A stretch of DNA of 50,194 nucleotides from an uncultured Armatimonadetes bacterium (GTDB lineage Bacteria; Armatimonadota; Armatimonadia; Armatimonadales; Armatimonadaceae). Numbering within the stretch: position 1 is the first letter of the stretch; every line of letters begins with the position of its first letter. The position numbers and the translations under genes were made by a program. The stretch is from positions 1 to 50,194 of the forward strand of contig CADCTO010000001.1 in assembly GCA_902805585.1 (NCBI GenBank), given 5' to 3'. The notes under the pieces were generated by a model. That model saw nothing but the letters and a program-made list of their open reading frames with translations. It made no database searches and was not told the DNA's origin. Positions 7,583 through 48,788 of this stretch are shown here, piece by piece.

Positions 7583-9016
7583 CTACGCCGGCTTCGGCAC
7601 GACGCCCTGGAACGAAGGGTCGGAGATACCCCGGAGCTCGCCGGTGCTGTCGCCGAAAGCGCTCACGGGCGTGCCCATCGACCGGAGCATCGAGCGGTAC
7701 AGGTTGCACAGCGGGGTCTTCTTCTCGTACACCAGGTGGCGCCCGGAAGCGATGGTGCCGCCGCCCCGCCCCGCGAGCACGATGGGCAGGTTGTGCGGGC
7801 TGTGCGCGTTTCCGTCCTTCATGCCGCTGCCGAAAAGCACGAGCGAGTTGTCGAGCAGGGTGCCGTCTCCCTCCTTGATCGACTTCATCCGCCCCAGCAT
7901 GTACGCGTACTGCTCCATGTGCCAGAGGTTGATCTTTTTGTACTCTTCGAGCTTGTCCTCGTGGTTCTCGTGGTGCGAGATCTGGTGGTGGCCGCCGCTG
8001 ACGCCGGGCAGGAACGAGAAGTTCTTGCCGCTGACCTCGTTGCCGAACATGAACGTGGCGACGCGGGTCGAGTCGGTCCAGAAGGCGAGCACGATGATGT
8101 CGAGCATCAGGCGCACCTGCTCCGTATGGTCGATGCCGCGCTCCGAAAGGCGCGCCGGGTCCTTGTAATAGTCCCGGATGCGCCCGCCCAGCCGCTCGAT
8201 CTCCTTGCGCGCCAGCGGGTCGCCTTCGTACTCGGCGCGGCGGCGCGTGGCGTCGTAGGCGATGCGCTTTTCCACAGAGCGGACCGCATCGAAGTACTCG
8301 GTCAGCTTGAGGCGGTCCGCCTTCCCGACCCTGGCGTTCAGGCTCCGGGCGTCCTCCAGCACGGCGTCGAGCACGCTCTTGTCGCCCGCGGTCGATCCCT
8401 TCGCCTTGATGGCGTCCCGCCGGAAAAGCCGGTCGAAGGCGAGCTGCGGGTTGATCTCGCGCGAAACGGGGGTCGTGGGCGTGCTCCACGAGATGTGCGA
8501 GCCGTACAGGCGCGTGAAGCCGACGTTGACGTCGACGCCCATGGTGACGGGCTCGACGGAAAGCTCCAGCGAAGGCAGCGGCGTCAGGTTCCCGACGCGC
8601 TGCGCGACGAGCTGGTCCAGCGACACCCCGCCGGAGCGCAGGTCGCTGCCCGTGGTCTTGGTGACCGCCGTACCGGTCAGGAACGGCGCGACTTTGACGT
8701 AGTGCCCGTCGCCCTCGATGCTGGCCTTGTTCATCATCTCGGTCAGCACCAGGATGTCGGACTTCACGTTCGCCAGCGGCTGGAGGATCGGCGACAGTTC
8801 CCAGTTGCTGCCGTACCCCTGCGGCGTCCACGCCTTCGCGTTCACCCCGTTCGGCATGTACAGCGCGGCCATCCGCACGGGCGCCTTGCTCTTGCCCTTC
8901 GGCCCCGCGCCGAACGCGGCGAGCGGCCCCATGGCCTCCAGGAACGGCAGGCACATCGTCACGCCCACGCCCTTCAGCACGGCCCGCCGGGATACCGACA
9001 ACGACTCTCGATCCAT
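7583..9016 (-). CDS. DUF1552 (HXXSHH) domain-containing protein
   Basis: 477 aa with a Tat-like N-terminus 'SRRAVLKGVGVTMCLPFLEAM' and the family-defining 'GGHHQISHH' (HxxSHH) motif. ATG 9014-9016 is preceded by GGGAGAG. It sits directly downstream of its usual DUF1592-type partner. Confidence 0.8.
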   Translation of the reverse strand: MDRESLSVSRRAVLKGVGVTMCLPFLEAMGPLAAFGAGPKGKSKAPVRMAALYMPNGVNAKAWTPQGYGSNWELSPILQPLANVKSDILVLTEMMNKASIEGDGHYVKVAPFLTGTAVTKTTGSDLRSGGVSLDQLVAQRVGNLTPLPSLELSVEPVTMGVDVNVGFTRLYGSHISWSTPTTPVSREINPQLAFDRLFRRDAIKAKGSTAGDKSVLDAVLEDARSLNARVGKADRLKLTEYFDAVRSVEKRIAYDATRRRAEYEGDPLARKEIERLGGRIRDYYKDPARLSERGIDHTEQVRLMLDIIVLAFWTDSTRVATFMFGNEVSGKNFSFLPGVSGGHHQISHHENHEDKLEEYKKINLWHMEQYAYMLGRMKSIKEGDGTLLDNSLVLFGSGMKDGNAHSPHNLPIVLAGRGGGTIASGRHLVYEKKTPLCNLYRSMLRSMGTPVSAFGDSTGELRGISDPSFQGVVPKPA

Positions 9017-9026
9017 CAATCTCTCC

Positions 9027-10988
9027 CTATGAACTTTTCCGGTACTGGAACGGGTAGCTCTTCACGATCTCCAGGATCAAAGTCGAGCTGCGGTAGCCGT
9101 CCTTTTCGAGCCGGGTCGTGATTCGGCGCACGGCCGGAAGGTCGTACGGCTCCAGGCCCCGCCCGAGGGAATACGACAACATTTTCTCGGCCAGGTTACG
9201 CACGAAGTCTTCCTTGCGCGTCAGCAGGTGCTTCTTAAGCTCCGACGGCCCGACGAACTTTTCGCCGTTGGCCAGCGTACCGGCCGCGTCCACCGGCGCC
9301 CCGCCGATCTCGTCGCGCCAGCGGCCGATGCCGTCGAAATTCTCCAGGCCGAAGCCCAGCGGGTCCATCCGCACGTGGCACGACACGCATTCGGGCTTTT
9401 CCCGGTGCTTCTCCAGCCGCTGCCGGAAGGTCAGCCCTTCCTTGGGCGCGTCTTCCTGGCCCAGGACGGCCACGACCGCCGGCGGGGGCGGCGCCGGGGT
9501 GCCGAGGATCTCCTCCAGAACCCACTTTCCGCGCAGGACCGGGCTCGTGCGCTGCGGATAGGACGTGAGGGTCAGCACGCTCGCCATCGTCAGCACCCCG
9601 CCGCGCCGCCCGTCGGACAGGCGCACGCGGCGCAGCTTCGGCCCGGTCACGTTCGGGATGTTGTAGTGCTTGGCGAGGTCTTCGTTCAGATACGTGTAGC
9701 CGGCGTCGAGCAGGTGGAGCAGGTTGCGGTCCTCGCGGAGCACGTCGTCCACGAACGCGATGGTCTCGCCGTACATGGCGTCGCGCAGCGCGGGCGTGAA
9801 GCCGGGGAACCGGCGCGGGTCGGGGTTCGAGACCGTGTACAGGTCGCGCACCCGGAGCCACTGCCCGGCGAAGCTGTCCGCGAGCGCCGCGGATTTGGGG
9901 CTCTTCAGCATCCGCTGTACCTGCTGCTCCAGCACCTTCGGGTCGCGCAGGCGCTTCTGCGCCGCGAGCTTGAAGAGGGTGTCGTCCGGCATCGAGGCCC
10001 ACAGGAAGTATGAAAGACGGCTCGCCAGCTCCCAGTCGCTGATCGGGTAGGCCCGGGTGCCGGGGCGGTCCCGCTCGACGCGGAACAGGAAGTTGGGCGA
10101 GATCAGGACGGCCTTGAGCGCGAGCTTGACGGAATCCTCGAACGAGGCGCCGCGCCTGGCGGACCCGTCGTACAGGCGCATCAGCCGATCGACTTCCGGC
10201 GTCTCGACAGGGCGCCGGAACGCCCGCATCGCGTAGTGCCCCACGATCTTGCGGGCCGCCGCGCGCGGTGCCAGCGTCTTCGACGGCCGCACGAAGAAGA
10301 GGCGGGCCGGCTTGGTCTCGTCCAGGATCTCGCCCGCCGCGCCGAGGTAGCGCTCCATCAGGATCGGCGGGACGAACAGCGTGTCGGCGTTGTTGTCGAA
10401 GCCGCCGCCCCCGCCTCCGTCGGCCGGGAACTTGTCCGCGGGCTTGGAGGTCACGCCGAACAGGTCGCGGACGGTGTTGTTGTACTCGGCGCGGCTGAGC
10501 CGGTGGATGAGCACGCGGCCGGGGTTCTTGGGCAGCAGGCTCTCGTCGACGTTGTTCAGGGTGTGCGCCAGCCACTGCGACAGGCGGTCGCGCTGGTCCG
10601 GGCTCGGCTGGGGCATGTTGCTCGGCGGCATGCTGCCTTCGCGCACCGCGGCCAGCACCTTGCGCCAGGTCGCCTGGTCCCGCTGGACCGCCGTCACGGT
10701 CTTGAACGACGACAGGTTCACGCCGCCGCTGGCCTTGGCGTCGCCGTGGCAGCCGGTGCAGAACTGGTCGAGCACGGGACGGATGTGCTGCTCGTACGTG
10801 GCCTGATCGGAGGCGGCCTTCTTCGGGGCGACGGTTTTTGCGGGAGCAGCTTTGGGCTGCTCGCCGCCCCGCGCGATGCCCGCGCCGAGCAGGAGCAGCG
10901 GCATCGCCAGATAGGCCAGCAAGAGTGGGGACGCCTTTCGGCGAAGGGTCAGCGTCTGATCATCCGGTCTGCGGTTACGGCCATGCAT
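9027..10988 (-). CDS. DUF1592/DUF1588/DUF1585/DUF1587/DUF1595-type protein with a cytochrome-c-like CxxCH motif
   Basis: 'FCTGCHGD' haem-binding-like motif near the N-terminus and 'CVSCHVRMDPLGFGLENFDGIGRWRD' near the C-terminus, typical of the Planctomycete PSD/PSCyt family. The start is uncertain: ATG 10988 ('MHGRN') or ATG 11000. The latter overlaps a TATAAT box. Confidence 0.75.
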   Translation of the reverse strand: MHGRNRRPDDQTLTLRRKASPLLLAYLAMPLLLLGAGIARGGEQPKAAPAKTVAPKKAASDQATYEQHIRPVLDQFCTGCHGDAKASGGVNLSSFKTVTAVQRDQATWRKVLAAVREGSMPPSNMPQPSPDQRDRLSQWLAHTLNNVDESLLPKNPGRVLIHRLSRAEYNNTVRDLFGVTSKPADKFPADGGGGGGFDNNADTLFVPPILMERYLGAAGEILDETKPARLFFVRPSKTLAPRAAARKIVGHYAMRAFRRPVETPEVDRLMRLYDGSARRGASFEDSVKLALKAVLISPNFLFRVERDRPGTRAYPISDWELASRLSYFLWASMPDDTLFKLAAQKRLRDPKVLEQQVQRMLKSPKSAALADSFAGQWLRVRDLYTVSNPDPRRFPGFTPALRDAMYGETIAFVDDVLREDRNLLHLLDAGYTYLNEDLAKHYNIPNVTGPKLRRVRLSDGRRGGVLTMASVLTLTSYPQRTSPVLRGKWVLEEILGTPAPPPPAVVAVLGQEDAPKEGLTFRQRLEKHREKPECVSCHVRMDPLGFGLENFDGIGRWRDEIGGAPVDAAGTLANGEKFVGPSELKKHLLTRKEDFVRNLAEKMLSYSLGRGLEPYDLPAVRRITTRLEKDGYRSSTLILEIVKSYPFQYRKSS

Positions 10989-11069
10989 GCTGTCCGTCAT
11001 TATACCGCGAGCCGGGCGGGCGGCGCCAGGCAACGCATGGCATCGTTCCCGCCCGGGGGAGCATCCCGC

Positions 11070-11244
11070 CCGTGAAGGAGCCCCGCCCTGAACGGCGGGC
11101 TGAGGGGAACGCTGCCCGCCTTCGCGGGCGCCGGAAAGTGCATCGCCTCCGGCGGAACAAGGGGCGGTCCCTGCCACCTCCGGCGCCCGCGAAGGCGGGC
11201 AACACTCCCCTCAGCCCGCCGTTCAGGGCGGGGCCTCTTCACGG
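11070..11244. repeat. composite palindromic element (about 63-65-nt arms, about 45-nt centre) in a divergent intergenic region
   Basis: Arm 11072-11134 (gtgaaggagccccgccctgaacggcgggctgaggggaacgctgcccgccttcgcgggcgccgg) against the reverse complement of 11180-11242: 57/63 identical, with mismatches clustered in two patches. Each arm also holds small local hairpins (gcccgc-cttc-gcgggc). Confidence 0.8.
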
Positions 11245-15482: not shown

Positions 15483-16654
15483 GACGGTCTGCGCTGCGCA
15501 GGATCCTGTTCCACCTCCACCTGTACGCCGGCGTGACGCTCGGATTGCTCACCGTCGTGGCGGGCGTGACGGGGAGCCTGCTCGTCTTCCGGCACGAGAT
15601 CGACGCCGTGATCGCCCCCGGTCTGCTCCACGTCCGGCCAAGGGGCGAGCGCGTGCCTTTGCAGGCGGTCGTCGACGCGGCGCGGCGGGCGCATCCGGGG
15701 GCGGTGATCCAGCACCTCTTCCTGTCGCGGGAGCCGGGACAGGCGCACGCGGTGTGGCTGAAGGGGGAGGGCGCGCCCCGCGTGTACGTGGACCCGTACA
15801 CCGGGGCCGTCCTCGGCGCCCGCGCCCCCGAGGGGACCGCCACCGGCTGGCTCTTCGCGCTGCACACCGAGCTTCTGACCGGCACGCGCGGGGAGGTCGT
15901 GGTGCTGATCGGCGCCCTGTCGCTCGTCCTGCTGAGCGTGACGGGCCTGCTGCTGTGGTGGCCCTCGGCGTGGAGGCTGTTGCGATCCGCCGTGACCGTG
16001 AAGTGGCGCGCGGGGTGGCGGCGGGCTACTTTCGACCTGCACCGGGCGTTCGGCTTCTGGGCGGCGGGCCTGCTGTGCCTGGCGGCGGTGTCCGGCGCGA
16101 CGTTCGTGCCCCCGTTCCGCGACTGGTTCGCGTCCGCAGTCACCGCAGCCACCGGGGCGCCGGCGCGCGCGCCGGCGCCCAAAGTCGTGCCGCCGCGCAC
16201 CGGCGCCGAACCGCTTCCCGTGGACGTGCACGTGGCGAACGCGGAGGCGGCCCTGACGGGCGGTCGCGTGACGCGCATCGGCCTGCCGGCGAAGCCGGAC
16301 GCGCCGATCGTCGTGCGTAAATGGACCCCGGGCGAGCTGCACCCGAACGGGATGAACTTCGTGTATCTCGACCCGTACACGGCGCGCGTGCTGAAGGTGG
16401 AGCGCTCGGACGCCGCGTCCACGGGCCCGCGCCTGATGAACCTGCGCTACCCCGTGCATATCGGCGTCTGGGGCGGGACGCTGACCCGCGTGCTGTACGT
16501 GCTGCTCGGGCTCGCGCCGCTCGCGCTGCTGGTCAGCGGCTGCGTGATGTGGTGGAACCGGGTGGCGGCGCCGCAACGTGTCCGGCGTGGCGCGGCGCGC
16601 GCCGGGTATCCGGTGCGGGCGCGTGCTACGCCTCCAGCTGAAGGAACAGGTTGA
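15479..16654 (+). CDS. PepSY-associated TM helix domain protein (PiuB-like)
   Basis: '[37 protein letters not shown]', '[10 protein letters not shown]', 'LHRAFGFW' and the C-terminal '[10 protein letters not shown]'. The GTG start overlaps the pseudopilin stop (GTGA). Confidence 0.8.
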
Positions 16655-18020
16655 TCAGCGCTTCGGACAGGGTCGGGTGGGCGAGGATCGTGTCCCGCAC
16701 GTCGGTGTAAGACAAGCCGCCGCGCATCGCCATCTGCACGACCGACATGATCTCGCCGCCCTCCCGGCACAGCAGGGCGCACCCCAGTATTCGGCCGGTA
16801 TCCTCTTCCACGACCGCTTTCAGGAAGCCGCGCGTTTCTCCCGTTTCGACCGTGCGCGCCGCCTCCGTCATGGGCAGCTTCGCGACCCGGATGCGGCGTC
16901 CGTCCGCCCGCGCCTCCCGTTCGGTCATCCCCACCCGGCCGAGCTGCGGGTCGATGAACACGGTGTAGGGGATGATGCGGCCTTCGGTCGTGGCGTTCTC
17001 CCCGCCCAACAGGTTGCGCGAAAGGATGCGGAAGTCGTCATACGAGACGTGCGTGAAGGCGGGGCCGCCCGTCACGTCGCCCATCGCCCACACGCCCGGC
17101 GCGCTGGTCGCGAGTCGTTCGTCCACACGGACGTAGCCGGCGTCGTCCGTCTCCACGCCCGCCGTTTCCAGGCCAAGTCCGTCGGTGTTGGGCACCCGGC
17201 CCGTCGCGACCAGGAGGTGGGAGCCGGCAAGCATCGGCGGGCTGGCGTCGCCGCGCACCGTCAACGCGACCTCCCCGCCTGACGACTGCGCGCGAACCGC
17301 TTCCGCGCGCAGCCGAACGTCGACGCCGTCCTCCCGCAGGATGTCGGCGACCGCGGCGGCGACGTCCTCGTCCTCGCCGGGCAGCAACCGGTCGCCCTGC
17401 TCGACGATCGTCACGCGGCTCCCGAATCGGCGGAACATCTGCGCGAACTCCAGCCCGATGTAGCCGCCGCCCAGGATGATCAGGTGCGGCGGAAGGGCAT
17501 CGTCCATCTCCAGGATCGACGTGGAGTCCAGGTACGGGATCTCCCGGAGTCCCTCGATGGGCGGCGCGGCGGGCCGCGTGCCGGTGTCGATGACGATCCG
17601 ATCGGCGGTGAGCGACAGCTCCTCACCATTAGCTCGCTGCCGCACCGAAAGCGTCTTCGGGCCGGTGAAGCGCGCCTCGCCGAAGATCAGGTCCAGCCCG
17701 TTCGTCGCTTCGAGTTGCCGCCGCGACTCGTGGCGGAAACGGCGGACGATGTTATCCCTGCGCCGCCGCACGGCCGCCACGTCCACCTCGACGGGCCCGG
17801 TGCGGACGCCGTACTCGTGTGCCCGGCGCGCCAGGTGGGCCACGTGCGCACTCGCCAGCATCGTCTTCGTGGGCGTGCAGCCGCGGTTCGTGCAGGTCCC
17901 GCCGACCTGCCCCCGCTCGATCAGCGCCGTTTTGCGCCCCGCTCCCGCCAGCGCCCGGCTCAGCGGGTCCGCCCCGTGCCCGGCGCCGATCACGATCGCG
18001 TCGTAGTGCTCCACTGCCAT
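16626..18020 (-). CDS. class I pyridine nucleotide-disulfide oxidoreductase (dihydrolipoyl dehydrogenase / MerA-like, no metal-binding N-domain)
   Basis: 'YDAIVIGAGHG' FAD fold, redox-active 'GGTCTNRGCTPTK', 'LIILGGGYIGLEFA' NAD fold, 'GVWAMGDV' and a dimerisation domain. Its 3' end overlaps the PepSY gene by 29 nt, in convergent orientation. Confidence 0.8.
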   Translation of the reverse strand: MAVEHYDAIVIGAGHGADPLSRALAGAGRKTALIERGQVGGTCTNRGCTPTKTMLASAHVAHLARRAHEYGVRTGPVEVDVAAVRRRRDNIVRRFRHESRRQLEATNGLDLIFGEARFTGPKTLSVRQRANGEELSLTADRIVIDTGTRPAAPPIEGLREIPYLDSTSILEMDDALPPHLIILGGGYIGLEFAQMFRRFGSRVTIVEQGDRLLPGEDEDVAAAVADILREDGVDVRLRAEAVRAQSSGGEVALTVRGDASPPMLAGSHLLVATGRVPNTDGLGLETAGVETDDAGYVRVDERLATSAPGVWAMGDVTGGPAFTHVSYDDFRILSRNLLGGENATTEGRIIPYTVFIDPQLGRVGMTEREARADGRRIRVAKLPMTEAARTVETGETRGFLKAVVEEDTGRILGCALLCREGGEIMSVVQMAMRGGLSYTDVRDTILAHPTLSEALINLFLQLEA

Positions 18021-18162: not shown

Positions 18163-19503
18163 ATGCGCCTCCCCGCCAAAGCATTGTCGCTCTTCGCCGC
18201 TGCCGGCCTCCTGGTCGCCGGCGGGGTCGCCGTCGCGCGCCTGCCGCACACCGGGGCCGAGGCGGTTCGACCGGCGGGAGCGGCCCGGACGGTGGCGCAC
18301 GCGCGGTCCGTCCCGGCGCCGGCGCCGCCGCAAAAGCCCACCGGACGGCTCGCCGCGGTCCTGCCGAAGCCCGAAGAAGAGCGGTGGCTCCAGGTACCCT
18401 GGCGCACCGACGTCACCCGGGCCCGCGCGGAGGCGCAGCGCACCGGCAAGCCGCTGTTCTTCTGGATCATGGACGGCAGCCCGCTGGGCTGCACGTGAGG
18501 GAACGGCCAGGTCAACCGGCGGTTGACCTTCAGCGACCCGGCCGTCATCCGGCGCCTGCAAACGCGCTTCATCCCCGTCGCCGGCAACACGCACGAACTC
18601 CAGATCCGGCCCTCGCCCGGCCAGCAGTGGTTCGTTCGCATGGCGTTCGCCCCAGAGGTTCCCGGTAGCGGCGAACTGCGCCGCCAGTACCGGCGCGACC
18701 ACACCGTCCAGGGCTTTTTCGTCGCCGGGGCGGACGGGACGAACTACGGCTGGCGCAACGAGCGCAGCCCCCGCATCGTCGCCCGCTTCCTGGACGCCTC
18801 TCTGGCAGCGTACCGAAAGCGCGCGCCGCGCACGGTGTCCTTGACCGGCGCGGCGCCGCACCGATCAGCCGTGAAGGTGCCGAACGCGTCCACCTCCGTT
18901 GTCCGCGTCTTCAGCCGCATCCGCCCGGTCCCGGCCGGCGCGGATCCGCGCAACAAGGATGTCGGCCGGGACCACTTCTGGGTCCTCTCCAGCGACGTGC
19001 GCGCGCTGCGCGCCGCCTCCCCCGGCGACGGGCGGCCGTTCCCGATGCCGCCCGCGCTGGTCGCCCGCCTGGTGCGGTTCCACCTCGTGGACAACGTGCG
19101 CGGGGAGCCCGATATGTGGACGGCGGAAGACGTCCGGAAGGCGGACTTCACGGCGCGGCGGCGGCGCAGTGCGAACGGCGCGGACTCCTTTGTCTTCCAC
19201 GGCGCGTTCGCGCAGCGCACCCCGAACGGCCGCCGGGGGCTGGAGGGGCGCATCTGGGGCGAGTTCGACGTGCCGTCGGCGACTGATAAGGTCGTCCGGT
19301 TCCGCGCCTTCGGCAAGGGGCAAGCCTGGGGCCGGTCCCGGTACACGCCCCGGCCGCCCCGCCGGCGGTTCCCGATGGTCTTCGCCCTGGTCGAGGCCGA
19401 CGACGCGGCCGCGCGCACCGTGTCGCCGCAGGCCGTCTCGAGCGGCGAGGCGTACCCCGAACTGCGCATCGGCCTGCGCGAGTACCTGGACCCGTCCACG
19501 TAG
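18163..19503 (+). CDS. secreted thioredoxin-fold protein with an in-frame UGA (18496-18498): candidate selenoprotein, otherwise a pseudogene or split gene
   Basis: ORFs 18163..18498 and 18523..19503 share a frame, and the TGA is the only stop between them. The joined sequence is signal peptide, then '...KPLFFWIMDGSPLGCT-U-GNGQVNRRLTFSDPAVIRRLQTRFIPVAGN...', so the stop sits where the thioredoxin-fold redox residue is expected. The second ORF has no SD or promoter. Confidence 0.5.
18509..18529 (+). promoter_or_regulatory. SECIS-like stem-loop 10 nt downstream of the in-frame UGA
   Basis: a-ggtcaacc / ggc / ggttgacc-t: a 9-bp perfect stem with a G-rich 3-5-nt apical loop. The ORF finder's TTG 'start' at 18523 lies inside the 3' arm. 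Confidence 0.45.
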
Positions 19504-19567: not shown

Positions 19568-20665
19568 ATGGAGAACGAGATGAACCCCGGCCTGCGCCCG
19601 GTGCTCCTGCAGTTCCACCCGGAACTGAGCCGCACCGAAGACGGCGAAGAAGAGCGCGGCGACCTGTCCGTCGCCGTCGAGATCGGCGACACGCTCTGGG
19701 TCGCCTCCGACGAGACCGTGCGCCTCACCCGCCTGTCGCGACAGGGGGAAGACGCGTACGGCAGCCACGCCGTCTTCAACATCGCCGATTTCGTCAAGCT
19801 CGCCGGCAAGAAGGACGCCGAGGCCGACCTGGAAGGTCTCGACCACGCCGACGGGTACCTGTGGATGACGGGCTCCCACAGCCTGAAACGGGCCAAGCCG
19901 GACCGGGACGACGACGCGCAGGCGAACCTCGAGGCGCTGGCGGAGGTGACCACCGACAGCAACCGGTTCCTGCTGGCGCGCATCCCCGTGGTGACGGAAA
20001 ACGGCGTCCCCACGCTGGCGGCGGAAGCGAACAACGGGAAGCGGCGCCGCACGGCCGCCCTGCTGCGCGGCGGCACGAACGGCAACGATCTGACCCGGGC
20101 GCTCGCGAAGGATGAACACCTCGCCCCGTTTCTGAAGATCCCGAGCAAGGACAACGGTCTGGACATCGAGGGGCTGGCCGTGTCGGGGAGCCGCGTCTTC
20201 CTCGGGCTGCGCGGGCCGGTGCTGCGCGGCTGGGCCGTGGTGCTGGAGGTGGAACCGGCCGCGGCCGACAAGGGCCTGCTGAGGCTCAAGAAGATCGGGC
20301 CGGAAAAACGCCGGTACCGGAAGCACTTCGTCGATCTGCGCGGCCTGGGCATCCGCGAACTGTGCATCGACGGGGCCGACCTGCTGCTCCTCGCCGGGCC
20401 GACCATGGACCTGGACGGCCCTTCCGTGGTGTACCGCTGGAAGGGGGGCGCCGACCCGCCCGGAGACGAGGACACGGTCGTCTTCGAGGGCGACATCGAG
20501 AAAGTGCTGGACGTGCCCCACGGCGTCGGCGAGGACCACGCGGAGGGGATAACGTTCCGCCGCCTGGACAGCCAGCGTCGCTCGCTCCTCGTGGTATATG
20601 ACTCGCCCGCGCCCGCCCGCCTGCGGGGCCGCGGCGGCTTCATCGCCGACGCCTTCGACCTGTGA
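19568..20665 (+). CDS. DUF3616 domain-containing protein (tentative)
   Basis: 365 aa from ATG 19568 ('MENEMNPGLRPVLLQF'). Contains 'ADLEGLDHADGYLWMTGSHS', 'DNGLDIEGLAVSGSRVFLGLRGP' and 'HAEGITF'. The family assignment is from memory. Confidence 0.6.
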   Translation: MENEMNPGLRPVLLQFHPELSRTEDGEEERGDLSVAVEIGDTLWVASDETVRLTRLSRQGEDAYGSHAVFNIADFVKLAGKKDAEADLEGLDHADGYLWMTGSHSLKRAKPDRDDDAQANLEALAEVTTDSNRFLLARIPVVTENGVPTLAAEANNGKRRRTAALLRGGTNGNDLTRALAKDEHLAPFLKIPSKDNGLDIEGLAVSGSRVFLGLRGPVLRGWAVVLEVEPAAADKGLLRLKKIGPEKRRYRKHFVDLRGLGIRELCIDGADLLLLAGPTMDLDGPSVVYRWKGGADPPGDEDTVVFEGDIEKVLDVPHGVGEDHAEGITFRRLDSQRRSLLVVYDSPAPARLRGRGGFIADAFDL

Positions 20666-21669: not shown

Positions 21670-23133
21670 ATGGCGTACGCCGGCTTTCAGGACTTCCTGA
21701 AGGCGCTGGAAAAAGCGGGGGAGCTGAAGCGGATCAAGGCGCCCGTGGACCCGGAACTGGAGATCACCGAGATCGCCGACCGCGCCGTCAAGGGCGCCGG
21801 GGGCGGGCCCGCGCTCCTGTTCGAGAACCCCCGGGGCCACACCGTCCCCGTCGCCATCAACACCTTCGCCACCCGCAAACGTATCTCCATGGCTTTCGGC
21901 GTCGAGGACGTGGACGAGATCGCCTGCGAGATCGAGAAGCTCGTCAAGCTCCCCGGCAACATGCCGCCCGGCCTGATGGGCAAGGCCGCCCTGCTCCCCG
22001 GGCTGGCGCGCATCGGGCGCCACACCGCGCCCCGGATCGTCGGGGGCGGCGCGCCGTGCCAGGAGGTCGTGAAGCTGGGCGAAGCCGCCTCGCTCGACGA
22101 ACTGCCGATCCTCAAGTGCTGGCCGCTCGACGGCGGCCGGTTCATCACGCTCCCGCTCGTCTTCACGCGCGAGGCCAACACCGGCAAGCGCAACGTCGGC
22201 ATGTACCGCATGCAGGTCTACGACAAGCGGACCTGCGGGATGCACTGGCAGCGCCACAAGGTCGGCAGCCGCCACTACGCCGAGTACGAGGCGCAGAAGC
22301 GCGACATCCCGGTCGCCGTCGCCCTCGGCGGCGACCCGGTCCTGACCTACGCCGCCACCGCCCCGCTGCCCGACGAGATCGACGAGATGGTGTTCGCCGG
22401 CTTCATCCGCAAGAAGCCCGTCGATCTGGTGCGCTGCAAGACCGTGGACATCGCCGTGCCCGCCGACGCCGAGTACATCATCGAGGGCGTGGTCCCCGCG
22501 GGCGAGCGGCGCACGGAAGGCCCGTTCGGCGACCACACCGGTTTCTATACGCTGGAAGACGACTACCCCGTGTTCCGTGTGACCGCGATCACGCACCGGC
22601 GCAGCCCCGTCTACCCGGCCACCATCGTGGGCCGCCCGCCCATGGAGGACGGCTGGCTGGGCAAGGCGACCGAGCGCCTGTTCCTGCCGCTGGTGCGCCT
22701 GTTCGTGCCCGAAGTGGTCGATTACAACCTGCCGGTCGAGGCGTGCTTCCACAACCTGTGCATCGTGAGCATCAAGAAGCGCTACCCCGGCCACGCCCAG
22801 AAGGTGATGCACGCGCTGTGGGGGTTGGGGCAGATGATGTTCACCAAGGTCATCATCGTGGTCGACGAGTGGGTGGACGTGCAGAACCTCCAGGAAGTGC
22901 TGTGGGTGGCGACCAACAACATCGACCCCGAGCGCGACACGACGTTCGTCAAGGGGCCCGTCGACGTGCTGGACCACGCGAGCCGCGCGATGGGCTTCGG
23001 CTCGAAAATGGGTATCGATGCGACAAAGAAACTGCCCGAAGAGGGGCACACGCGGGCGTGGCCGCCGGTCATCGAGATGGCGCCGGAGGTGAAGCGGCGT
23101 GTGGACGCTCTGTGGAGCGAACTGGGGTTGTGA
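21670..23133 (+). CDS. UbiD-family decarboxylase (menaquinone biosynthesis decarboxylase, futalosine route)
   Basis: 487 aa with 'FQDFLKALEKAGELKRIKAPVDPELEITEIADR', 'GPALLFENP' and 'NVGMYRMQVYD'. It is clustered with UbiX, a UbiA-like prenyltransferase and MqnA. Confidence 0.85.
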   Translation: MAYAGFQDFLKALEKAGELKRIKAPVDPELEITEIADRAVKGAGGGPALLFENPRGHTVPVAINTFATRKRISMAFGVEDVDEIACEIEKLVKLPGNMPPGLMGKAALLPGLARIGRHTAPRIVGGGAPCQEVVKLGEAASLDELPILKCWPLDGGRFITLPLVFTREANTGKRNVGMYRMQVYDKRTCGMHWQRHKVGSRHYAEYEAQKRDIPVAVALGGDPVLTYAATAPLPDEIDEMVFAGFIRKKPVDLVRCKTVDIAVPADAEYIIEGVVPAGERRTEGPFGDHTGFYTLEDDYPVFRVTAITHRRSPVYPATIVGRPPMEDGWLGKATERLFLPLVRLFVPEVVDYNLPVEACFHNLCIVSIKKRYPGHAQKVMHALWGLGQMMFTKVIIVVDEWVDVQNLQEVLWVATNNIDPERDTTFVKGPVDVLDHASRAMGFGSKMGIDATKKLPEEGHTRAWPPVIEMAPEVKRRVDALWSELGL

Positions 23134-23699
23134 AAACGTTGACGCGGCGACAACGAGCGGCGATGCCGGCGGGCGCCTGGCAGGTGTCGGAGGCGCTGTG
23201 GGGCGGCAAGCAGCGCGTCCGGCTGATCACGGGCGCGCCGTCGCTCCTGGCCGACCCCGAGCGCATCCGCTCGCTCCACGCCGTCGGCTTCGTGCATTCT
23301 GCGGAGAACGTCCTCCTGGTGCACAACAAGGACGGGACGTGGACGTTCCCGGGGGGCAGACTGGAAAACAGCGAGACGCCGGAGGAGGCGCTGGCCCGCG
23401 AGCTGTGGGAAGAGGCGCGCGCCACGCTCGCGCCGGACCCGATCCCGATCGCCGCGACCCGGATCGAGTTCATCAACCACGTCCCCGGCCGCGTGTATCG
23501 GTTCCACCCGACGTTCCTGCTGTGGGTCGCCGGCCGCGTCGCCGACCTTTCCGACGAGCCGCACCACGACCCGTCGGATTTCGTCACCGGCCGCCGCGTC
23601 GTCACCGTGGAGGAGGCGCGCGCGCTGCTCAAGCCGCTCGAAGCGCGCGTGCTGGAGGCGGCTTTGACCGCCTGGCAGAGCCGGGGAAGCAAATCATGA
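23130..23699 (+). CDS. NUDIX hydrolase
   Basis: Nudix box 'GGRLENSETPEEALARELWEEA'. GTG 23130 overlaps the UbiD-like stop (GTGA). An alternative ATG lies at 23163. Confidence 0.75.
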   Translation: MKTLTRRQRAAMPAGAWQVSEALWGGKQRVRLITGAPSLLADPERIRSLHAVGFVHSAENVLLVHNKDGTWTFPGGRLENSETPEEALARELWEEARATLAPDPIPIAATRIEFINHVPGRVYRFHPTFLLWVAGRVADLSDEPHHDPSDFVTGRRVVTVEEARALLKPLEARVLEAALTAWQSRGSKS

Positions 23700-23721
23700 A
23701 CGGGGGAGGCTGATCCCCACC

Positions 23722-24324
23722 ATGGCAGGGGACCCGAGCCGGCGTGTGGTGGTGGCGATGACCGGGGCGAGCGGCGCCATCTACGGCGTCCGCTTCCTGC
23801 GCCAGGCCGTGCGCCACTTCGACGAGGTGTATCTGACCCTGTCGGGCAACGCGCCCGCGGTCCTGGCGACCGAGTTGGGCGTCCGGCTTTCCGAGCGGCC
23901 GACGGCCGCCCAACTGCTGGGCATGGAGGCCCCGCAGCTCCGTATCTGTGAGCGGGGCGACTACTTCACACCGCCCGCCTCGGGCTCGTTCCGGCACGCG
24001 GGCATGGTCGTCATCCCCTGCTCGATGGGCACGGCGGGTCGCATCGCCCACGGCATCTCCGACGATCTGACGACCCGCGCCGCCGACGTCTGCTTGAAGG
24101 AGGGGCGCAGGCTCGTCCTCGTGGTGCGCGAGACGCCGCTGAACCTGATCCACCTGCGCAACCTGACGCAGCTCGCGGAGGCCGGCGCCACGATCCTTCC
24201 CGCCGCTCCGTCGTTCTATAACAAGCCGCAGACGATCGAAGACCTGGTGGACACCATCGTCGCCCGCGCGCTCCAGGCGCTGGGCGTGGAACAGGATCTG
24301 GTCCGGGAATGGAAGCACGCCTGA
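23722..24324 (+). CDS. ubiX: UbiX-family flavin prenyltransferase
   Basis: 'VVVAMTGASGAIYGVRFL', 'VVIPCSMGTAGRIAHGISDDLTTRAADVCLKEGRRLVLVVRETPL' and 'PAAPSFYNKP'. Confidence 0.9.
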   Translation: MAGDPSRRVVVAMTGASGAIYGVRFLRQAVRHFDEVYLTLSGNAPAVLATELGVRLSERPTAAQLLGMEAPQLRICERGDYFTPPASGSFRHAGMVVIPCSMGTAGRIAHGISDDLTTRAADVCLKEGRRLVLVVRETPLNLIHLRNLTQLAEAGATILPAAPSFYNKPQTIEDLVDTIVARALQALGVEQDLVREWKHA

Positions 24325-25199
24325 GACTCCCGCAGACGCCGTGGCAGAAGCTGCGCGTCGTGCTGGAGATGATCAAGATCGAGCACACGCTGTTCGCGCT
24401 CCCCTTCGCGCTGATGGGGGCGCTGCTGGCGGCGGGCGGCCTGCCCACCGGTGCGCAGATCGTCTGGATCCTGGTCGCCATGGTCGGCGCCCGCTCGGCG
24501 GCGATGGCGTTCAACCGGCTGGTGGACCGCGACATCGACGCCCGAAACCCGCGCACGGCCAACCGCGCGCTCCCGGCCGGTCTGGTGTCCGTGCCGTTCG
24601 TCGTCGGCTTCACGGTCGTCGCGTCCGCGCTGCTCGTCGGCGCCGCGTACCGGCTCAACCCGCTCGCCTTCGCGCTGTCGCCCGTCGCGCTCGTGATCGT
24701 CTTTTTCTACTCGTTCACCAAGCGCTTCACCGCCTGGTCACACGCGTTCCTGGGGCTGGCGCTGGCGGTCGCGCCCGTCGGCGCGTGGATCGCGGTCCGG
24801 GGCGCTTTCGGCGTGCCCGCCCTCTGGCTCGGGGCCGCCGTGGTCTGCTGGCTGATCGGCTTCGACATCATCTACGCCCTGCAGGACGTGGGGTTCGACC
24901 GGACGGCGGGCCTGCGTTCGCTTCCGGCGTCGCTCGGACCGCGCCGCGCCCTTTCGGTCGGCCGCGCCGCCCACGCCGTGATGATCGGGTGCCTGGCCGG
25001 GGTGGGGGTGACGGCGGGTCTCGGCGCCTGGTATTACGCGGGCGTGGCCCTCGCCGCCGTGCTCATCGCGTGGGAGCACGCCATCATCCGCCCCGACGAC
25101 CTGCGGCGGCTGAACGTCGCGTTTTTCAACCTCAACATCGCCGTGTCGTCGGGGCTGCTCCTATTCACGGCGCTGGATATCTGGCTAAGGAAGGGATGA
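24309..25199 (+). CDS. UbiA-family polyprenyltransferase (MqnP-like)
   Basis: 'MIKIEHTLFALPFALMGALLA', 'NRLVDRDIDARNPRTANRALPAG' and 'DIIYALQDVGFDR'. It overlaps the ubiX 3' end by 16 nt. Confidence 0.85.
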   Translation: MEARLRLPQTPWQKLRVVLEMIKIEHTLFALPFALMGALLAAGGLPTGAQIVWILVAMVGARSAAMAFNRLVDRDIDARNPRTANRALPAGLVSVPFVVGFTVVASALLVGAAYRLNPLAFALSPVALVIVFFYSFTKRFTAWSHAFLGLALAVAPVGAWIAVRGAFGVPALWLGAAVVCWLIGFDIIYALQDVGFDRTAGLRSLPASLGPRRALSVGRAAHAVMIGCLAGVGVTAGLGAWYYAGVALAAVLIAWEHAIIRPDDLRRLNVAFFNLNIAVSSGLLLFTALDIWLRKG

Positions 25200-25283
25200 G
25201 GGACGAGGGATGAGGGATGAGAAAGACTGGTCGTGGGAGCCGCAGGGGGATTCTCATCCCTCGCCCCTCATCCCTCGTCCCTT
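25191..25283. repeat. inverted repeat built from tandem GAGGGAY heptamers, spanning the UbiA-like stop and the mqnA start
   Basis: The left arm aagggatgagggacgagggatgagggatgagaa (25191-25223) matches the reverse complement of 25251-25283 at 29/33 positions. Two of the four mismatches would be G-U pairs in RNA. Loop is 27 nt. Confidence 0.75.
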
Positions 25284-26082
25284 TATCACCATCGGCACCG
25301 TCCCGTACCTGAACGCGCGGCCCCTGGTGCGGTGGTTCGGCGACACGGAGGAAGGGCGCGGCTCGGGCGTCCGGGTGGTCGAGGCCGTTCCGTCGGAACT
25401 CGCCCGGATGCTCCGGCGCGGCGAGTGCGCCGCCGCCCTGGTCTCCTCCTTCGAATTGCTGCGGCGCCCGGACCTGTGCTACGCGCCCGGCGTCGCCGTG
25501 GCCGCCGAGGGGCCGGTCCTTTCCGTGCGGATGCTGTCGAAGGTGCCGATCCCCGCGGTGCGCTCCGTCGCCCTGGACACGTCGTCCCTTACCTCGGTCG
25601 CGCTGCTCAAGATCCTCCTGGCGGAGCGTTTCGGCGTCGCGCCGTGCTATCTGCCGCACGGCCCCGACCTCGACCGCATGCTGTCGGAAGCGGACGCCGC
25701 GCTGCTGATCGGGGATCTGGGCTACCGGGAGTACGACCCGTCGCTGCATACCCTCGACCTGGGGGCGGCCTGGCGGGAGTTGACCGGACTGCCGTTCGTG
25801 TACGCGCTGTGGATCGGGTCCCCGGACCGGCTGACACCGGAGGTGGCGGAGGTTCTGCTACGCGCGAAGGAGTGGGGTGCCGCGCACCTGGAGGCGATCG
25901 CCCGCACGGAATACGAGCGCCTGGGGGAAACCTACGAGCGGACCCACGGCTACCTGACGAAGGTCATGCGCTACGGGCTCGGCGCGCGCGAAGTCGAGGG
26001 GCTGCGCGCCTTCGCCGGGAAGGCGCTGGCGAACGGCCTGATCGACGCGCCCGCCCCGCTGTCGCCCTGCACGTCCCGATGA
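25210..26082 (+). CDS. mqnA: chorismate dehydratase MqnA (futalosine pathway)
   Basis: 'ITIGTVPYLNARPLV', 'SVALDTSSLTSVALLKILL' and 'DAALLIGD'. The only in-frame start is ATG 25210, which adds a roughly 25-aa extension encoded by the heptamer palindrome. Confidence 0.8.
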   Translation: MRDEKDWSWEPQGDSHPSPLIPRPFITIGTVPYLNARPLVRWFGDTEEGRGSGVRVVEAVPSELARMLRRGECAAALVSSFELLRRPDLCYAPGVAVAAEGPVLSVRMLSKVPIPAVRSVALDTSSLTSVALLKILLAERFGVAPCYLPHGPDLDRMLSEADAALLIGDLGYREYDPSLHTLDLGAAWRELTGLPFVYALWIGSPDRLTPEVAEVLLRAKEWGAAHLEAIARTEYERLGETYERTHGYLTKVMRYGLGAREVEGLRAFAGKALANGLIDAPAPLSPCTSR

Positions 26083-45409: not shown

Positions 45410-45955
45410 CTACTTCTTCGGCACGAACTTGAGGGCGGCGGAGTTCATGCAGTAGCGCAGGCCCGTCGGCCTGGGGCCGTCGTCGAAGACGTGCCCGAGG
45501 TGCGCGTCGCACCGCGCGCACAGCACCTCGGTACGCGTCATGAACATGCTCCGGTCCACCTCGGTGTGCACGTTCTCGCGCGCGATCGGCTGGTAGAAGC
45601 TGGGCCAGCCCGTTCCCGAGTCGTACTTGGCGTCCGACGAGAACAGCGGCAGCCCGCAGCAGACGCATTCGTACGTCCCCGTGCGCTTGGTGGCGTGGTA
45701 CGCGTTCAGGAACGGGGGCTCGGTGCCCTTCTGGCGCGTCACGCGGAACTGCATCGTGCTGAGCTGCTTGCGCCATTCGCGGTCGGTCTTCACGACCTTG
45801 GGGCCGATCTTGGCTTGCGTCTCGCCGGCGGCGGACGCGGACGCGTCGGCCGGTTTTCCGGGGGCGGCATCCTGCGCCCGGACGGCAAACGTGGCGGCCA
45901 CGCCGAAGGCGGCCAGAGACGCCAGCGCCAGCACGCCCCGATGTAGTTTCTTCAT
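45410..45955 (-). CDS. msrB: peptide-methionine (R)-S-oxide reductase with signal peptide
   Basis: Signal '[27 protein letters not shown]', '[28 protein letters not shown]', '[16 protein letters not shown]' and 'RYCMNS' (catalytic Cys, not Sec). GGAGG SD. Confidence 0.9.
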
Positions 45956-45977
45956 GCTTTTTCTCGCCTCCGTCGTG

Positions 45978-48029
45978 TCAGTTTCCGGGCGCCGCGCCGG
46001 CGACCGGCGCGCGCAGGGTCAGGTTCGTGCCGCCGCCGTCGGCCACGGTGTAGGGCGCGCGGAACCGCAGGGTCTTGAGTTTGCAGACCGTTTCGGCCTC
46101 CGAACAGTAGAAGACCGTGGCCGTGACGAGCGCCGCGCCCGAAGTGCCGACCGCGCCGCTCGTGAACGGGAGGCGGAGCGGGAGGGTGAACTCGCTGGAG
46201 GGGACGGTGTTGCGGGCGAGTGCGAGCCCCTGGCCCTCGACGCGCGCCTCGACGCGCTGCGGCGACCCGGGGTTCAGCTTGTGCCGCGCCGGCAGAACCA
46301 CGTCCAGCACCAGCTCGCCGCGCGCGTTCGGCGCGAGCGTCGCGGCGGGGAGCGTGATCGTGTCTTTGCCCGCCGCTATGGGGCGCACGGGCCGCTCGGG
46401 TTCGGCCGGAAGCGCGGCGGGCAGGTTCTTCAGAGCGAGCGTCGTGGCGGTTCTGGTCGCGACATCCACGACGCGGACGCGGTGGTTGTTCGTGTCGGCC
46501 ACGTAGAGCTTACCGCCCGCATGGCTCAGGCCGCCGGGCTCATAGAACTGCGCCTGCTTGCCGTCCCGGCTGCCCTGCCCGCCGCCGAGCCACGTCTGCG
46601 TCCTGCCGGTCGCCGGTTCGATGGTCTTGATCTTGTGGTTATAGGTGTCGGCGACGTACAGGACGCCGTTCACGTACTCCACGCCCAGCGGGTGCTGGAG
46701 CCGCACCGAAAGCCCGGTCCCGTCCCGGTCGCCGAAGTCGAACAGGTCGCCCCCCGCCAGCGTCCGCACTTTGTCGCCGGTTTGGGGCAGGTCCACCGCC
46801 CGTATCGCGCTGATCTCGCTGTCGGCGATGAAGAGCGTCTTCCCGTCCGTCGCCAGCCCCGACGGCTGCGCGAAGGCGGCCGCCGCACGGCTGCCGTCGG
46901 TGCGCGCCTCCCGACCCGATCCGGCGAACACACCCACACGTCCGGAGGAAAGGTCCATCGCCCAGATCTGGTGCGGCCCGGCCATGGCGATGTAGAGCGT
47001 GTCGCCCAGGAGGAGCAGGTCCCAGGGCGACGCCAGCGCGGCGCGGGTCCCCCGGCCTCCCGTGCTGCGCCACGGCGCCTGCCGCCCCGTCCCGGCGATC
47101 GTCTTCACGATGCCCGTCTTCAGGTCCAGCGCGCGGATGGAATGGTTGTTGGTGTCGGCGACGAGCAGCGTGGGCGCCCCGTCCGGCCCTTTCCGGAGCG
47201 CCATGCCCTGCGGGTTCCGGAAGGTCGCGCGGTCGAACGGGCCATCTTCCAGGCCCGCCACGCCCGTCCCGGCGACCGCATGGACGTTCCCCTCCAGGTC
47301 GGCGATCACGATGCGGTTGTGGTTCGAGTCCGCCACGAACAACCGCCCGAGGGCCGCGTCGGCGAGCACCTTGCCGGGGTACCAGAGCGGCGTCGCGGGC
47401 GTTTTGGCCGCCTCCAGCGCGAACCGCACCGGCGTCGCGTTCAGCTTACCTGCGGCACGGAACTCGCGGGCGACCTTGCCGATGGTCTGGTCGAGCACGT
47501 TGTAGTTGCCCTCGCCCGATACCGCGCCGACCACGTTGCCGGCCGGGTCGATCAGCACGAACGTCGGCCACGCGTTGACGCCATACGCCTGCCACATCTT
47601 CATGCCCACGTCGTTCAGGATCGGGTGCTCGATGTTGTAGCGGAGCAAAGCGTTCTTGATGTTGGGCGTCTCGTCCTCGTTGTCGAACTTGGCCGAATGC
47701 ACGCCGATGACGACCAGCTCTTTGGCGTACTTGCGCTCCAGCCGCTTGAGGTCCGGCAGGATGTGCATGCAGTTGATGCACCCGTAGGTCCAGAAGTCCA
47801 GCAGAACCAAATGTCCCTTCAGCCCCCGGAGCGACAGCGGCCTGCCACCGGTGTTCAGCCACACCGACGGGTCCTGCGGGAACTCCGGGGCGGGCGGCCC
47901 GCCCGACGGCGACTGCGCCGATGCGGGCGATCCGGCGGAAAGCAGGGTGGCAGCCAGCGGCGGCGAGAGCAGGGAGAGCGCCAGCGTCAACCGCTGGCGG
48001 CGCATGCGCGTGAAGGAGTCGGATTCCAT
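45978..48029 (-). CDS. secreted thioredoxin-like (redoxin) domain fused to an NHL-repeat beta-propeller
   Basis: '[15 protein letters not shown]' CxxC motif and '[11 protein letters not shown]', followed by repeated 'ADSNHNRIV', 'ADTNNHSIR', 'ADTYNHKIK' and 'ADTNNHRVR' NHL blades. Signal peptide present. An alternative ATG lies at 48005. Confidence 0.85.
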
Positions 48030-48092
48030 GTCCCTTATAACGACCAGGCGAGGGCGCGAGTTCCCGGGCGGGCCGGGAGTGACGGGAAGCGC

Positions 48093-48098
48093 TATAAT
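48093..48098 (+). promoter_or_regulatory. TATAAT box 6 nt upstream of the ankyrin gene ATG (leaderless configuration)
   Basis: gcTATAATgaaggcATG. No clear -35 element. Confidence 0.35.
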
Positions 48099-48104
48099 GA
48101 AGGC

Positions 48105-48788
48105 ATGTGGGCGTGGGACGGATTCGTGGAGGCCGCGGCGCGGCGGGCCCGGAAACGAGAGCGCGAGGCGCTGTACGAGCGGCTCTCGGACGCCATCATA
48201 GGCGGCGACCGTGACGCCGTCGTTGCCTTTCTGGACGCGGGCGCGGAACCCGGCGGGGCGAAGGCGGAAAACGGGATGACCATGCTGATGTACGCGGCCT
48301 ACGGCGGGCGCGCCGAGGCGGCCCGCCTGCTGCTGGGTCGGGGGGCGGACCCCAACGCCGCCACGGCAAGCGGATTAACCGCGCTGATGTACGCCCAGCA
48401 GAGCTTCGACGGGCACCCGGACGCGGTACGGGTGCTGCTGGAGCATGGCGCCGACCCAAACGCCGCGACCGACGACGGCTGGACGGCACTGATGATGGCC
48501 GCGACTTCGGATTCCCACCTCGAAGCCGCCCGCGCTCTGCTCGACGGTGGCGCGGGCGTGAACCGACGGGATTCCTGCGACGCGCGGCGTCTGACCTCCG
48601 GCATGACCGCGCTCATGTGGGCGGCTTCGCTGGGGTGCGGGCGCACCGTCGCTCTGCTCGTGGAGCGGGGCGCGGACGTGGACCTCGTGGACGGCGAAGG
48701 ATTAACAGCACTGGACATGGCACTCCGGGGCCTTGGCAATCCCCGCGAAAACATCATCAACGTGCTCCGGCGCGGGGGTGCGGTCTGA
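48105..48788 (+). CDS. ankyrin repeat protein
   Basis: 227 aa with repeats 'GMTMLMYAAYGGRAEAARLLLGRGADPNA', 'GLTALMYA...VRVLLEHGADPNA', 'GWTALMMAA...ARALLDGGAGVN' and 'GMTALMWAASLGCGRTVALLVERGADVD'. Confidence 0.85.
   Translation: MWAWDGFVEAAARRARKREREALYERLSDAIIGGDRDAVVAFLDAGAEPGGAKAENGMTMLMYAAYGGRAEAARLLLGRGADPNAATASGLTALMYAQQSFDGHPDAVRVLLEHGADPNAATDDGWTALMMAATSDSHLEAARALLDGGAGVNRRDSCDARRLTSGMTALMWAASLGCGRTVALLVERGADVDLVDGEGLTALDMALRGLGNPRENIINVLRRGGAV

Follow-up and report, generated by a model that had tools for sequence, protein, structure and literature searches.

Bacterial selenocysteine insertion sequence (SECIS) elements, with that of E. coli fdhF as the prototype, are hairpins inside the open reading frame (ORF), directly past the UGA. 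Their small apical loop lies 16–37 nt from the UGA (PMC10778597) and carries a conserved guanosine (PMC1088965). Two selenoprotein families come closest to the gene described here. In NF041383 (VPGUxxT type 2, 'hypothetical protein OS_HP5'), a thioredoxin-like protein has selenocysteine (Sec) as the first residue of the site equivalent to CxxC and, in the resolving position, a residue other than Cys. In NF041199, the Trx7/PDZ (seleno)protein, a Thioredoxin_7-type domain carries a CxxU motif with Sec as the second residue (PMC13188914 Table 1). The gene of interest lies at 18163–19503 on the forward strand of the window, by which we mean the whole 50,194-nt stretch of contig CADCTO010000001.1 from an uncultured Armatimonadetes bacterium. 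Our analysis indicates that it is very probably a single gene for an exported two-domain selenoprotein, in which an in-frame UGA would be read as Sec by means of a downstream hairpin. It is a gene of an ordinary kind, in which a Sec-UGA and a bacterial SECIS are combined with a thioredoxin fold.

The gene resembles each of these systems in part. Like that of fdhF, its hairpin is located in the ORF directly past the UGA and carries a conserved G (here G-U) in a small apical loop, but the sequences are unrelated and no bulged U is evident in its 5–9 bp stem. When the product was compared with NCBIfam release 20, the best match was NF041383, whose score of 15.3 bits over residues 77–140 fell short of the cut-off of 275; NF041199 scored 10.5 bits, below its cut-off of 300. 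The motif of NF041383 is VPGUxxT, whereas here it is GCTUGNG (GC[TV]UNNG in the family) and is accompanied by an unmatched C-terminal domain of ~210 aa. With NF041199 the product shares the placement of Sec on a Thioredoxin_7-type domain, but the Sec is the first residue rather than the second and there is no PDZ domain, Pfam having given no PDZ match. The Thioredoxin_7 (PF13899) and Thioredox_DsbH/DUF255 proteins (3f9u, 3ira, 7tkv) have the same fold, the same register and the same following helix motif (F-S-D-P-x-V...F-[IV]-x-V). Their active site is Cys-x-x-Cys, whereas that of the present protein is Sec-x-x-Gly in a loop with about five extra residues.

The frame opens at ATG 18163 and closes at TAG 19501–19503. 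It is a single frame of 447 codons, and TGA 18496–18498 is its sole internal stop (Table 1). The upstream piece ends ...KPLFFWIMDGSPLGCT, and the downstream piece continues LTFSDPAVIRRLQTRFIPVAGN. Eight codons, GNGQVNRR, separate the TGA from the TTG that nominally starts the downstream ORF; this TTG (18523–18525) lies 25 nt past the TGA and falls within the 3' arm of the hairpin. No promoter-like or terminator-like site was found when the stretch between the two halves was examined. The preliminary description of this DNA had reported two ORFs in one frame with one TGA between them, a downstream ORF without a promoter, and a TTG start inside the hairpin arm, and all three statements were borne out. 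The GC content at third codon positions was 0.90 in the upstream half and 0.93 in the downstream half, so that both halves carry the coding signature of the genome (70% GC). The joined product showed full-length homology to loci in at least five phyla.

Table 1. Coordinates of the predicted selenoprotein gene and its features in the window
Feature	Position	Strand	Description or basis
Complete selenoprotein gene (predicted)	18163–19503	+	446 codons including one Sec codon, plus TAG stop
N-terminal signal peptide or membrane anchor	18163–18243	+	Hydrophobic core at about residues 8–26
Thioredoxin-like domain (Thioredoxin_7/DsbH/UAS type), active site C-T-U-G-N-G	18385–18792	+	Approximate bounds mapped from P0026
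UGA predicted to be read as Sec, residue 112	18496–18498	+	Comparative alignment; Cys in P0026 and P0170; register against 3ira and 3f9u
SECIS-like hairpin inside the ORF	18509–18529	+	9-bp stem, GGC loop; fold and family covariation
Family-wide core stem	18512–18516 paired with 18522–18526	+	Family alignment
C-terminal domain of unknown function, ~213 aa, beta-rich	18862–19500	+	AlphaFold model

Two sets of 80 loci, one drawn from GTDB species genomes and the other from metagenomes, served to sample the family. Among the contigs of GTDB species genomes 479 relatives were reported, and the N-terminal piece was represented by 774 clusters at 50% identity. The hosts were Armatimonadota, Obscuribacterales, Planctomycetota (including Kuenenia, Tautonia, Gemmataceae and Pirellulaceae), Verrucomicrobiota, Polyangia and Poribacteria. 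The first homologue search gave 29 matches, all of 250–380 aa, which spanned just the downstream 56–79% of the joined protein. On three independent contigs (60%, 42% and 30% identity), a short upstream ORF in the same frame ended in TGA at the aligned position. Across the sample the aligned site was TGA in 164 of 164 cases (142 distinct sequences); TAA, TAG and sense codons were each found 0 times. The motif around the site was G-[HN]-P-[LM]-G-C-[TV]-U-N-N-G, with GHPLGCT*NNG occurring 98 times, and the protein sequence was conserved on both sides of the TGA across the family.

When 1.84 billion representatives were searched exhaustively with the 111-aa N-terminal piece, 774 matches reached E ≤ 0.001. 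Of the top 150 matches, about 146 stopped at their own C terminus exactly at the last residues of the query, that is, at the TGA. The tails of the N-terminal matches were GCT (94), GCV (13) and, in a few cases, GAT, GCG, GST or GGT. Word-indexed protein searches with the mid-region and with the family profile added nothing. Two matches in the exhaustive search did read through the site. One, P0170, is continuous and has Cys at the Sec site (GHPLGCTCPGG). The other, P0102, is continuous and has Asp at that site (GSPLGGTDPFG). A Cys two residues before the Sec (position −2) is usual in the family, and P0102 has lost this residue also. A third protein, the full-length P0026, has Cys encoded by TGT at the Sec site, within GAVCNNG. 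Thus, the Cys that the preliminary description had proposed to seek at the U position of homologues was found in P0026 and P0170. Cys forms make up roughly 2% or less of the sample, and Sec is present in >98%. As read from these alignments, the site is Sec or Cys, as expected for a selenoprotein, with Sec dominating.

The structural setting of the site was examined with an AlphaFold model of P0026, the natural Cys form (predicted local distance difference test, pLDDT, 78; predicted template modelling score, pTM, 0.78). The model consists of a thioredoxin-like unit followed by a beta-rich domain, and the first domain is a beta-alpha-beta-alpha-beta-beta-alpha unit. Foldseek matched this first domain to 2dlx, 3f9u and 7tkv (UAS, Thioredoxin_7-type and Thioredox_DsbH) with a probability of 1.00 and E values of 2e-4 to 8e-4. 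In Pfam, Thioredoxin_7 (PF13899) matched residues 80–141 with 16.9 bits (E 0.007), which is under the gathering threshold of 27 bits. A PDB sequence search with the full-length profile gave nothing significant. A domain profile of 26 sequences aligned both the STCHWC of 3ira and the YGCVNC of 3f9u with C-T-U-N-N-G. Because these two registers are concordant, the Sec would stand in place of the nucleophilic first Cys and the Gly in place of the resolving Cys. A Thioredoxin_7/DUF255-type fold with U at the first Cys of CxxC was what had been proposed originally; the Foldseek result supports the fold, and the same result together with the two weak alignments supports the position of U.

The hairpin arms GGUCAACC/GGUUGACC plus an A-U pair form 9 bp (18509–18517 with 18521–18529) closed by the loop GGC at 18518–18520, and the spacer after the UGA is 10 nt. 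The surrounding 71-nt region folds at −34.3 kcal/mol, with z = −2.3 relative to shuffles, a modest value that by itself does not stand out in a 70% GC genome. The hairpin is considered more than chance because it is conserved and covaries across the family. These properties were determined from 131 distinct 48-nt segments, anchored on the TGA and aligned without gaps. In the drawn structure 74% of the cells pair, as compared with 29–44% when the 3' partners are slid by 1–3 columns, and neither the pairing nor the covariation score was matched by any of 500 shuffles. In the five core pairs (columns 20–24 with 30–34), 93% of cells are paired, and each pair shows double compensatory changes; for example, pair 21–33 is GC in 68 sequences and CG in 54, and pair 23–31 is AU in 87 and GC in 32. 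Unguided, RNAalifold recovered the identical five core pairs. The residues encoded by the arms differ with lineage (LD..ST, VG..LT, AG..LA and LD..FS, with VN..LT in the window). Because the arms vary between lineages in a complementary manner and thereby alter the encoded amino acids, selection appears to act on the RNA.

The loop is CGUGC in 57 sequences and CGUGA in 36 (together 93 of 131). The distance from the UGA to the start of the loop is 18 nt in the family and 19 nt in the window. The element is therefore a stem-loop directly past the UGA, with a small G-containing apical loop at a distance of 18–19 nt, within the 16–37 nt range of bacterial SECIS elements. The perfect 9-bp, SECIS-like stem noted in the preliminary description is supported by its fold, its conservation and its covariation. 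Four Fimbriimonadaceae loci (L022, L025, L029 and L097) fail the core pairing; they have an equal stem and a CGUGA loop shifted 3 nt (one codon) downstream, and this displaced stem sits about 20 nt after the TGA. In the Asp form just 2 of 7 stem pairs are Watson-Crick, and in the Cys form P0026 the core stem has a central mismatch and a wobble pair. These observations suggest, anecdotally, that the stem is tied to the TGA. A possible lower stem (columns 12–16 with 39–43) is weak, with 47–79% pairing, and we claim no lower stem. The Rfam scan of the window gave no match, a result that carries no information because no Rfam model fits the hairpin.

Genes for Sec machinery were found near family genes at two loci. 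In a Pirellulaceae metagenome-assembled genome (MAG), a tRNA-Sec with anticodon TCA (L084:4269–4368, +) lies 243 nt downstream of the family gene. It was called by ARAGORN and by Rfam (RF01852, 66.8 bits against a cut-off of 47). At the second locus (L138:3579–4101, −), a SelD-family fragment lies ~1 kb downstream of the family gene, in convergent orientation, and runs off the locus end. This fragment scored 116.6 bits with TIGR00476 on its C-terminal half alone, and nearly the same with the SelD-related fusion model TIGR04369; it was the sole match when E. coli SelA, SelB and SelD were used in tblastn searches of the window and all loci. Two such co-locations were seen, versus ~0.5 expected by chance across the 160 loci. 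They show that the hosts have the Sec trait and do not show linkage. The 465-aa ORF after the tRNA-Sec of L084 has the size of SelA, but is actually a galactokinase, and for that reason the selC adjacency was taken as evidence of the Sec trait and not of linkage. Complete selA, selB, selC and selD sets have been described in Gemmata, Isosphaera and two other planctomycetes (PMC4807772, S8 Table).

Several points weigh against the interpretation of 18163–19503 as a selenoprotein gene, or against parts of it. In the 50-kb window, neither Pfam, applied to the ~28 ORFs, nor tblastn with the E. coli proteins detected SelA, SelB or SelD, and ARAGORN found no tRNA, hence no tRNA-Sec. Because the window is 50 kb of a multi-megabase genome, this absence of sel genes says nothing either way. 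The two alignments that fix the register, though concordant, are weak (E 0.19 and 0.56), and confidence in the P0026 model is lowest at the active-site loop (pLDDT <50). The comparison of the hairpin in non-Sec forms consists of two sequences only. The −2 Cys is absent in ~14% of the family fragments; thus, a mechanism through a C-x-U selenenylsulfide cannot hold for the whole family. The assignment of a function is by inference, and the C-terminal domain is without a structural match. In addition, ORF clustering at 84 loci gave no conserved neighbourhood, and just the family's own halves and overlapping-frame ORFs recurred.

Of the other explanations, the one that survives best is that the UGA is read through without selenocysteine, for example by hairpin-stimulated insertion of a near-cognate Trp or Cys. 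Stimulation of stop-codon read-through by downstream RNA structure is a known phenomenon, and the window sequence, with no Sec machinery in it, would agree with such an event. We nevertheless consider it improbable. In the alignments the site falls on the catalytic Cys of CxxC, and Cys is also what the rare sense-codon forms have there; this is the standard Sec/Cys pattern. Were Cys the product, a TGY codon would be simpler, yet such a codon is almost never used. The presence of selC and of a SelD-family gene beside family genes also argues for Sec, as do the position and the loop of the hairpin, which fit the description of bacterial SECIS elements (PMC10778597, PMC1088965).

The pattern of variation around the TGA bears on a second explanation. 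In the three codons after the TGA, the entropy was 0.06, 0.10 and 1.05 at codon positions 1, 2 and 3, respectively, and a similar third-position excess was present in the 30 codons before the TGA and in codons +13 to +32. Judged by this substitution pattern, the region after the TGA evolves as translated sequence. No in-frame ATG occurs within 32 codons in 122 of the 142 sequences, and the starts assigned by gene callers are scattered from 12 to 144 nt downstream of the TGA. If there were two genuine genes, a small secreted protein would end at the TGA and a second protein would start downstream, with the hairpin serving in translational coupling or regulation. Every gene caller annotates the family as split in this way, and in the window a start codon is available at the TTG described above. 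Such an arrangement is still less likely than read-through without Sec. At a gene boundary common to phyla that differ widely in base composition, each of the three stop codons should turn up, yet only TGA was found, in 164 of 164 cases from genomes whose GC content varies greatly. Between the TGA and the called starts, the encoded protein is conserved and the codons vary at third positions, and most sequences have no in-frame ATG within 32 codons. Furthermore, the split would sever the thioredoxin fold between strand 1 and helix 1, and no break is present in the Cys and Asp forms. A pseudogene, or a window-specific error of sequencing or assembly, is hardly credible, although a lone in-frame stop does resemble a nonsense mutation or a base-calling error, because the identical codon recurs at the identical position in 160+ independent assemblies and both halves keep their coding signature. 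Three outcomes that the preliminary description had named as grounds for abandoning a selenoprotein, namely homologues that are two separate proteins, an assembly error, and decaying pseudogenes without a conserved hairpin, are rejected by these results; with respect to the last, both flanks of the TGA are under purifying selection and the hairpin is kept with compensatory changes.

We conclude that recoding of the UGA is shown by the comparative evidence. In the mechanism that we propose for this selenoprotein gene, the ribosome would meet the UGA at 18496–18498, and the hairpin at 18509–18529, inside the ORF, would act as a bacterial SECIS. By analogy with the known bacterial mechanism, the hairpin would recruit SelB with Sec-tRNA(Sec); selenocysteine would be inserted and translation would proceed to the TAG at 19501. 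The Sec is predicted to occupy the nucleophilic first position of the CxxC site; the local motif is C-T-U-G-N-G in this protein and C-[TV]-U-N-N-G across the family. The product may be an extracytoplasmic selenol-based oxidoreductase. Once its selenol has reacted with a substrate, either the −2 Cys, by forming a selenenylsulfide, or an external thiol could resolve it, and the C-terminal domain would supply substrate or ligand binding.

The predicted location rests on the N terminus and on two fusion proteins. A 12-aa window at residue 8 has a mean Kyte-Doolittle hydropathy of 2.35, and a signal-peptide-like hydrophobic segment is present in 99 of 121 family N-terminal fragments, in agreement with the signal peptide that had been noted in the upstream piece. 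In both fusion proteins the module is placed after a membrane segment. P0170 joins a Ser/Thr kinase and a membrane segment to the module with Cys, and P0102 (L167:1001–3091) joins a region like an extracytoplasmic function (ECF) sigma factor and a membrane segment to the module with Asp. The hydrophobic N terminus, together with the position of the module in the fusions, suggests that the module is extracytoplasmic. The kinase and ECF-sigma-like fusions hint at a use of the two-domain module as an external domain for sensing or binding. The product may thus act outside the cytoplasm as a selenol oxidoreductase or as a sensor module. At L166:1773–2799 (+), the P0026 gene is followed directly by radical SAM and SPASM-domain ORFs, a context that was not seen at Sec-form loci.

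The C-terminal domain of the window protein was modelled by AlphaFold with a pLDDT of 90.3 and a pTM of 0.88. It gave no Pfam or NCBIfam match, and a Foldseek search of the PDB returned no credible match; the best had an E of 0.028, a probability of 0.44 and a template modelling (TM) score of 0.28. Low-probability Foldseek matches to lipid-binding or beta-trough proteins such as START, LmcA, VioE and ApoB were too weak to indicate a function. The domain has many invariant charged and aromatic residues, including the motifs RFHLVDNVRGEPDxW and GxAWG. Confidently modelled and without a PDB match, it is a candidate for a new fold or ligand-binding module.

None of the 119 prokaryotic selenoprotein families in a 2026 inventory has a matching architecture or motif (PMC13188914 Table 1), and none of the new families in the Global Ocean Sampling (GOS) and deep-Sep papers fits. 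The database copies that we found were unnamed or 'hypothetical' and were N-terminally truncated. Relative to the open-access literature and preprints, we lean, with some reserve, toward the view that this is a previously uncatalogued and widespread selenoprotein family, almost never Cys, that combines Sec-x-x-Gly with a C-terminal fold absent from the PDB. According to its authors, deep-Sep may miss selenoproteins that lack Cys homologues (PMC12013277), and reliance of this type on Cys homologues is a plausible reason why the family was overlooked. The family exposes a blind spot of deep-Sep (PMC12013277) and of finders based on Cys/TGA pairs. Because public annotations split the gene into a ~90-aa orphan ORF and a truncated 'hypothetical protein', hundreds of species would be mis-annotated; one profile with a Sec-aware rule would mend the annotation of the family.

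If our interpretation is correct, the family may rank among the commonest selenoproteins in its phyla and would be a natural test case for why Cys cannot replace Sec. Most selenoprotein families have many Cys homologues, whereas this one has Sec in >98% of its members, which makes it a good system for studying what Sec does beyond Cys. It also would mark selenocysteine use in phyla with little-studied selenoproteomes, including Obscuribacterales. In the Obscuribacterales (Melainabacteria), the family was present with both TGA and hairpin in five MAGs (L006, L007, L008, L012 and L015), which implies selenocysteine use in these non-photosynthetic relatives of Cyanobacteria. Some loci had more than one family site. 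Two tandem paralogues were found in one locus (L067:3040–3282 and L067:4276–4518), with the motifs GST-U-CNS and GNT-U-CNS, in which the accessory Cys is at +1 to the Sec instead of −2. Locus L115 had two family sites as well.

The neighbours of the gene in the window were also identified. On the same strand, a DUF3616 gene (19568–20665, +; 425 bits) begins 65 nt past the selenoprotein stop; it is not a conserved neighbour elsewhere. Upstream and divergent lies a gene for a pyridine nucleotide-disulphide oxidoreductase (16626–18020, −). The preliminary description had drawn attention to a redox-related neighbour; the enzyme is indeed there, but it is not conserved as a neighbour and is probably cytoplasmic. 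For these reasons it adds no weight and is probably unrelated. A second redox pair is found farther away on the reverse strand, where an MsrB (SelR-domain) gene (45413–46018, −) and the end of a second gene (45981–48374, −) overlap; the second gene codes for a Thioredoxin_8/AhpC-TSA domain plus NHL repeats. At 21670–26082 (+) there is a probable futalosine-route menaquinone cluster, with Pfam matches to Flavoprotein, UbiA prenyltransferase and VitK2_biosynth; its first ORF appears UbiD-like from its N-terminal sequence only. At 7583–11210 (−) there is a PVC-type gene pair, suggestive of a planctomycete-like source, in which a DUF1552 gene adjoins a PSD1-5/PSCyt1 ('Planctomycete cytochrome C') gene.

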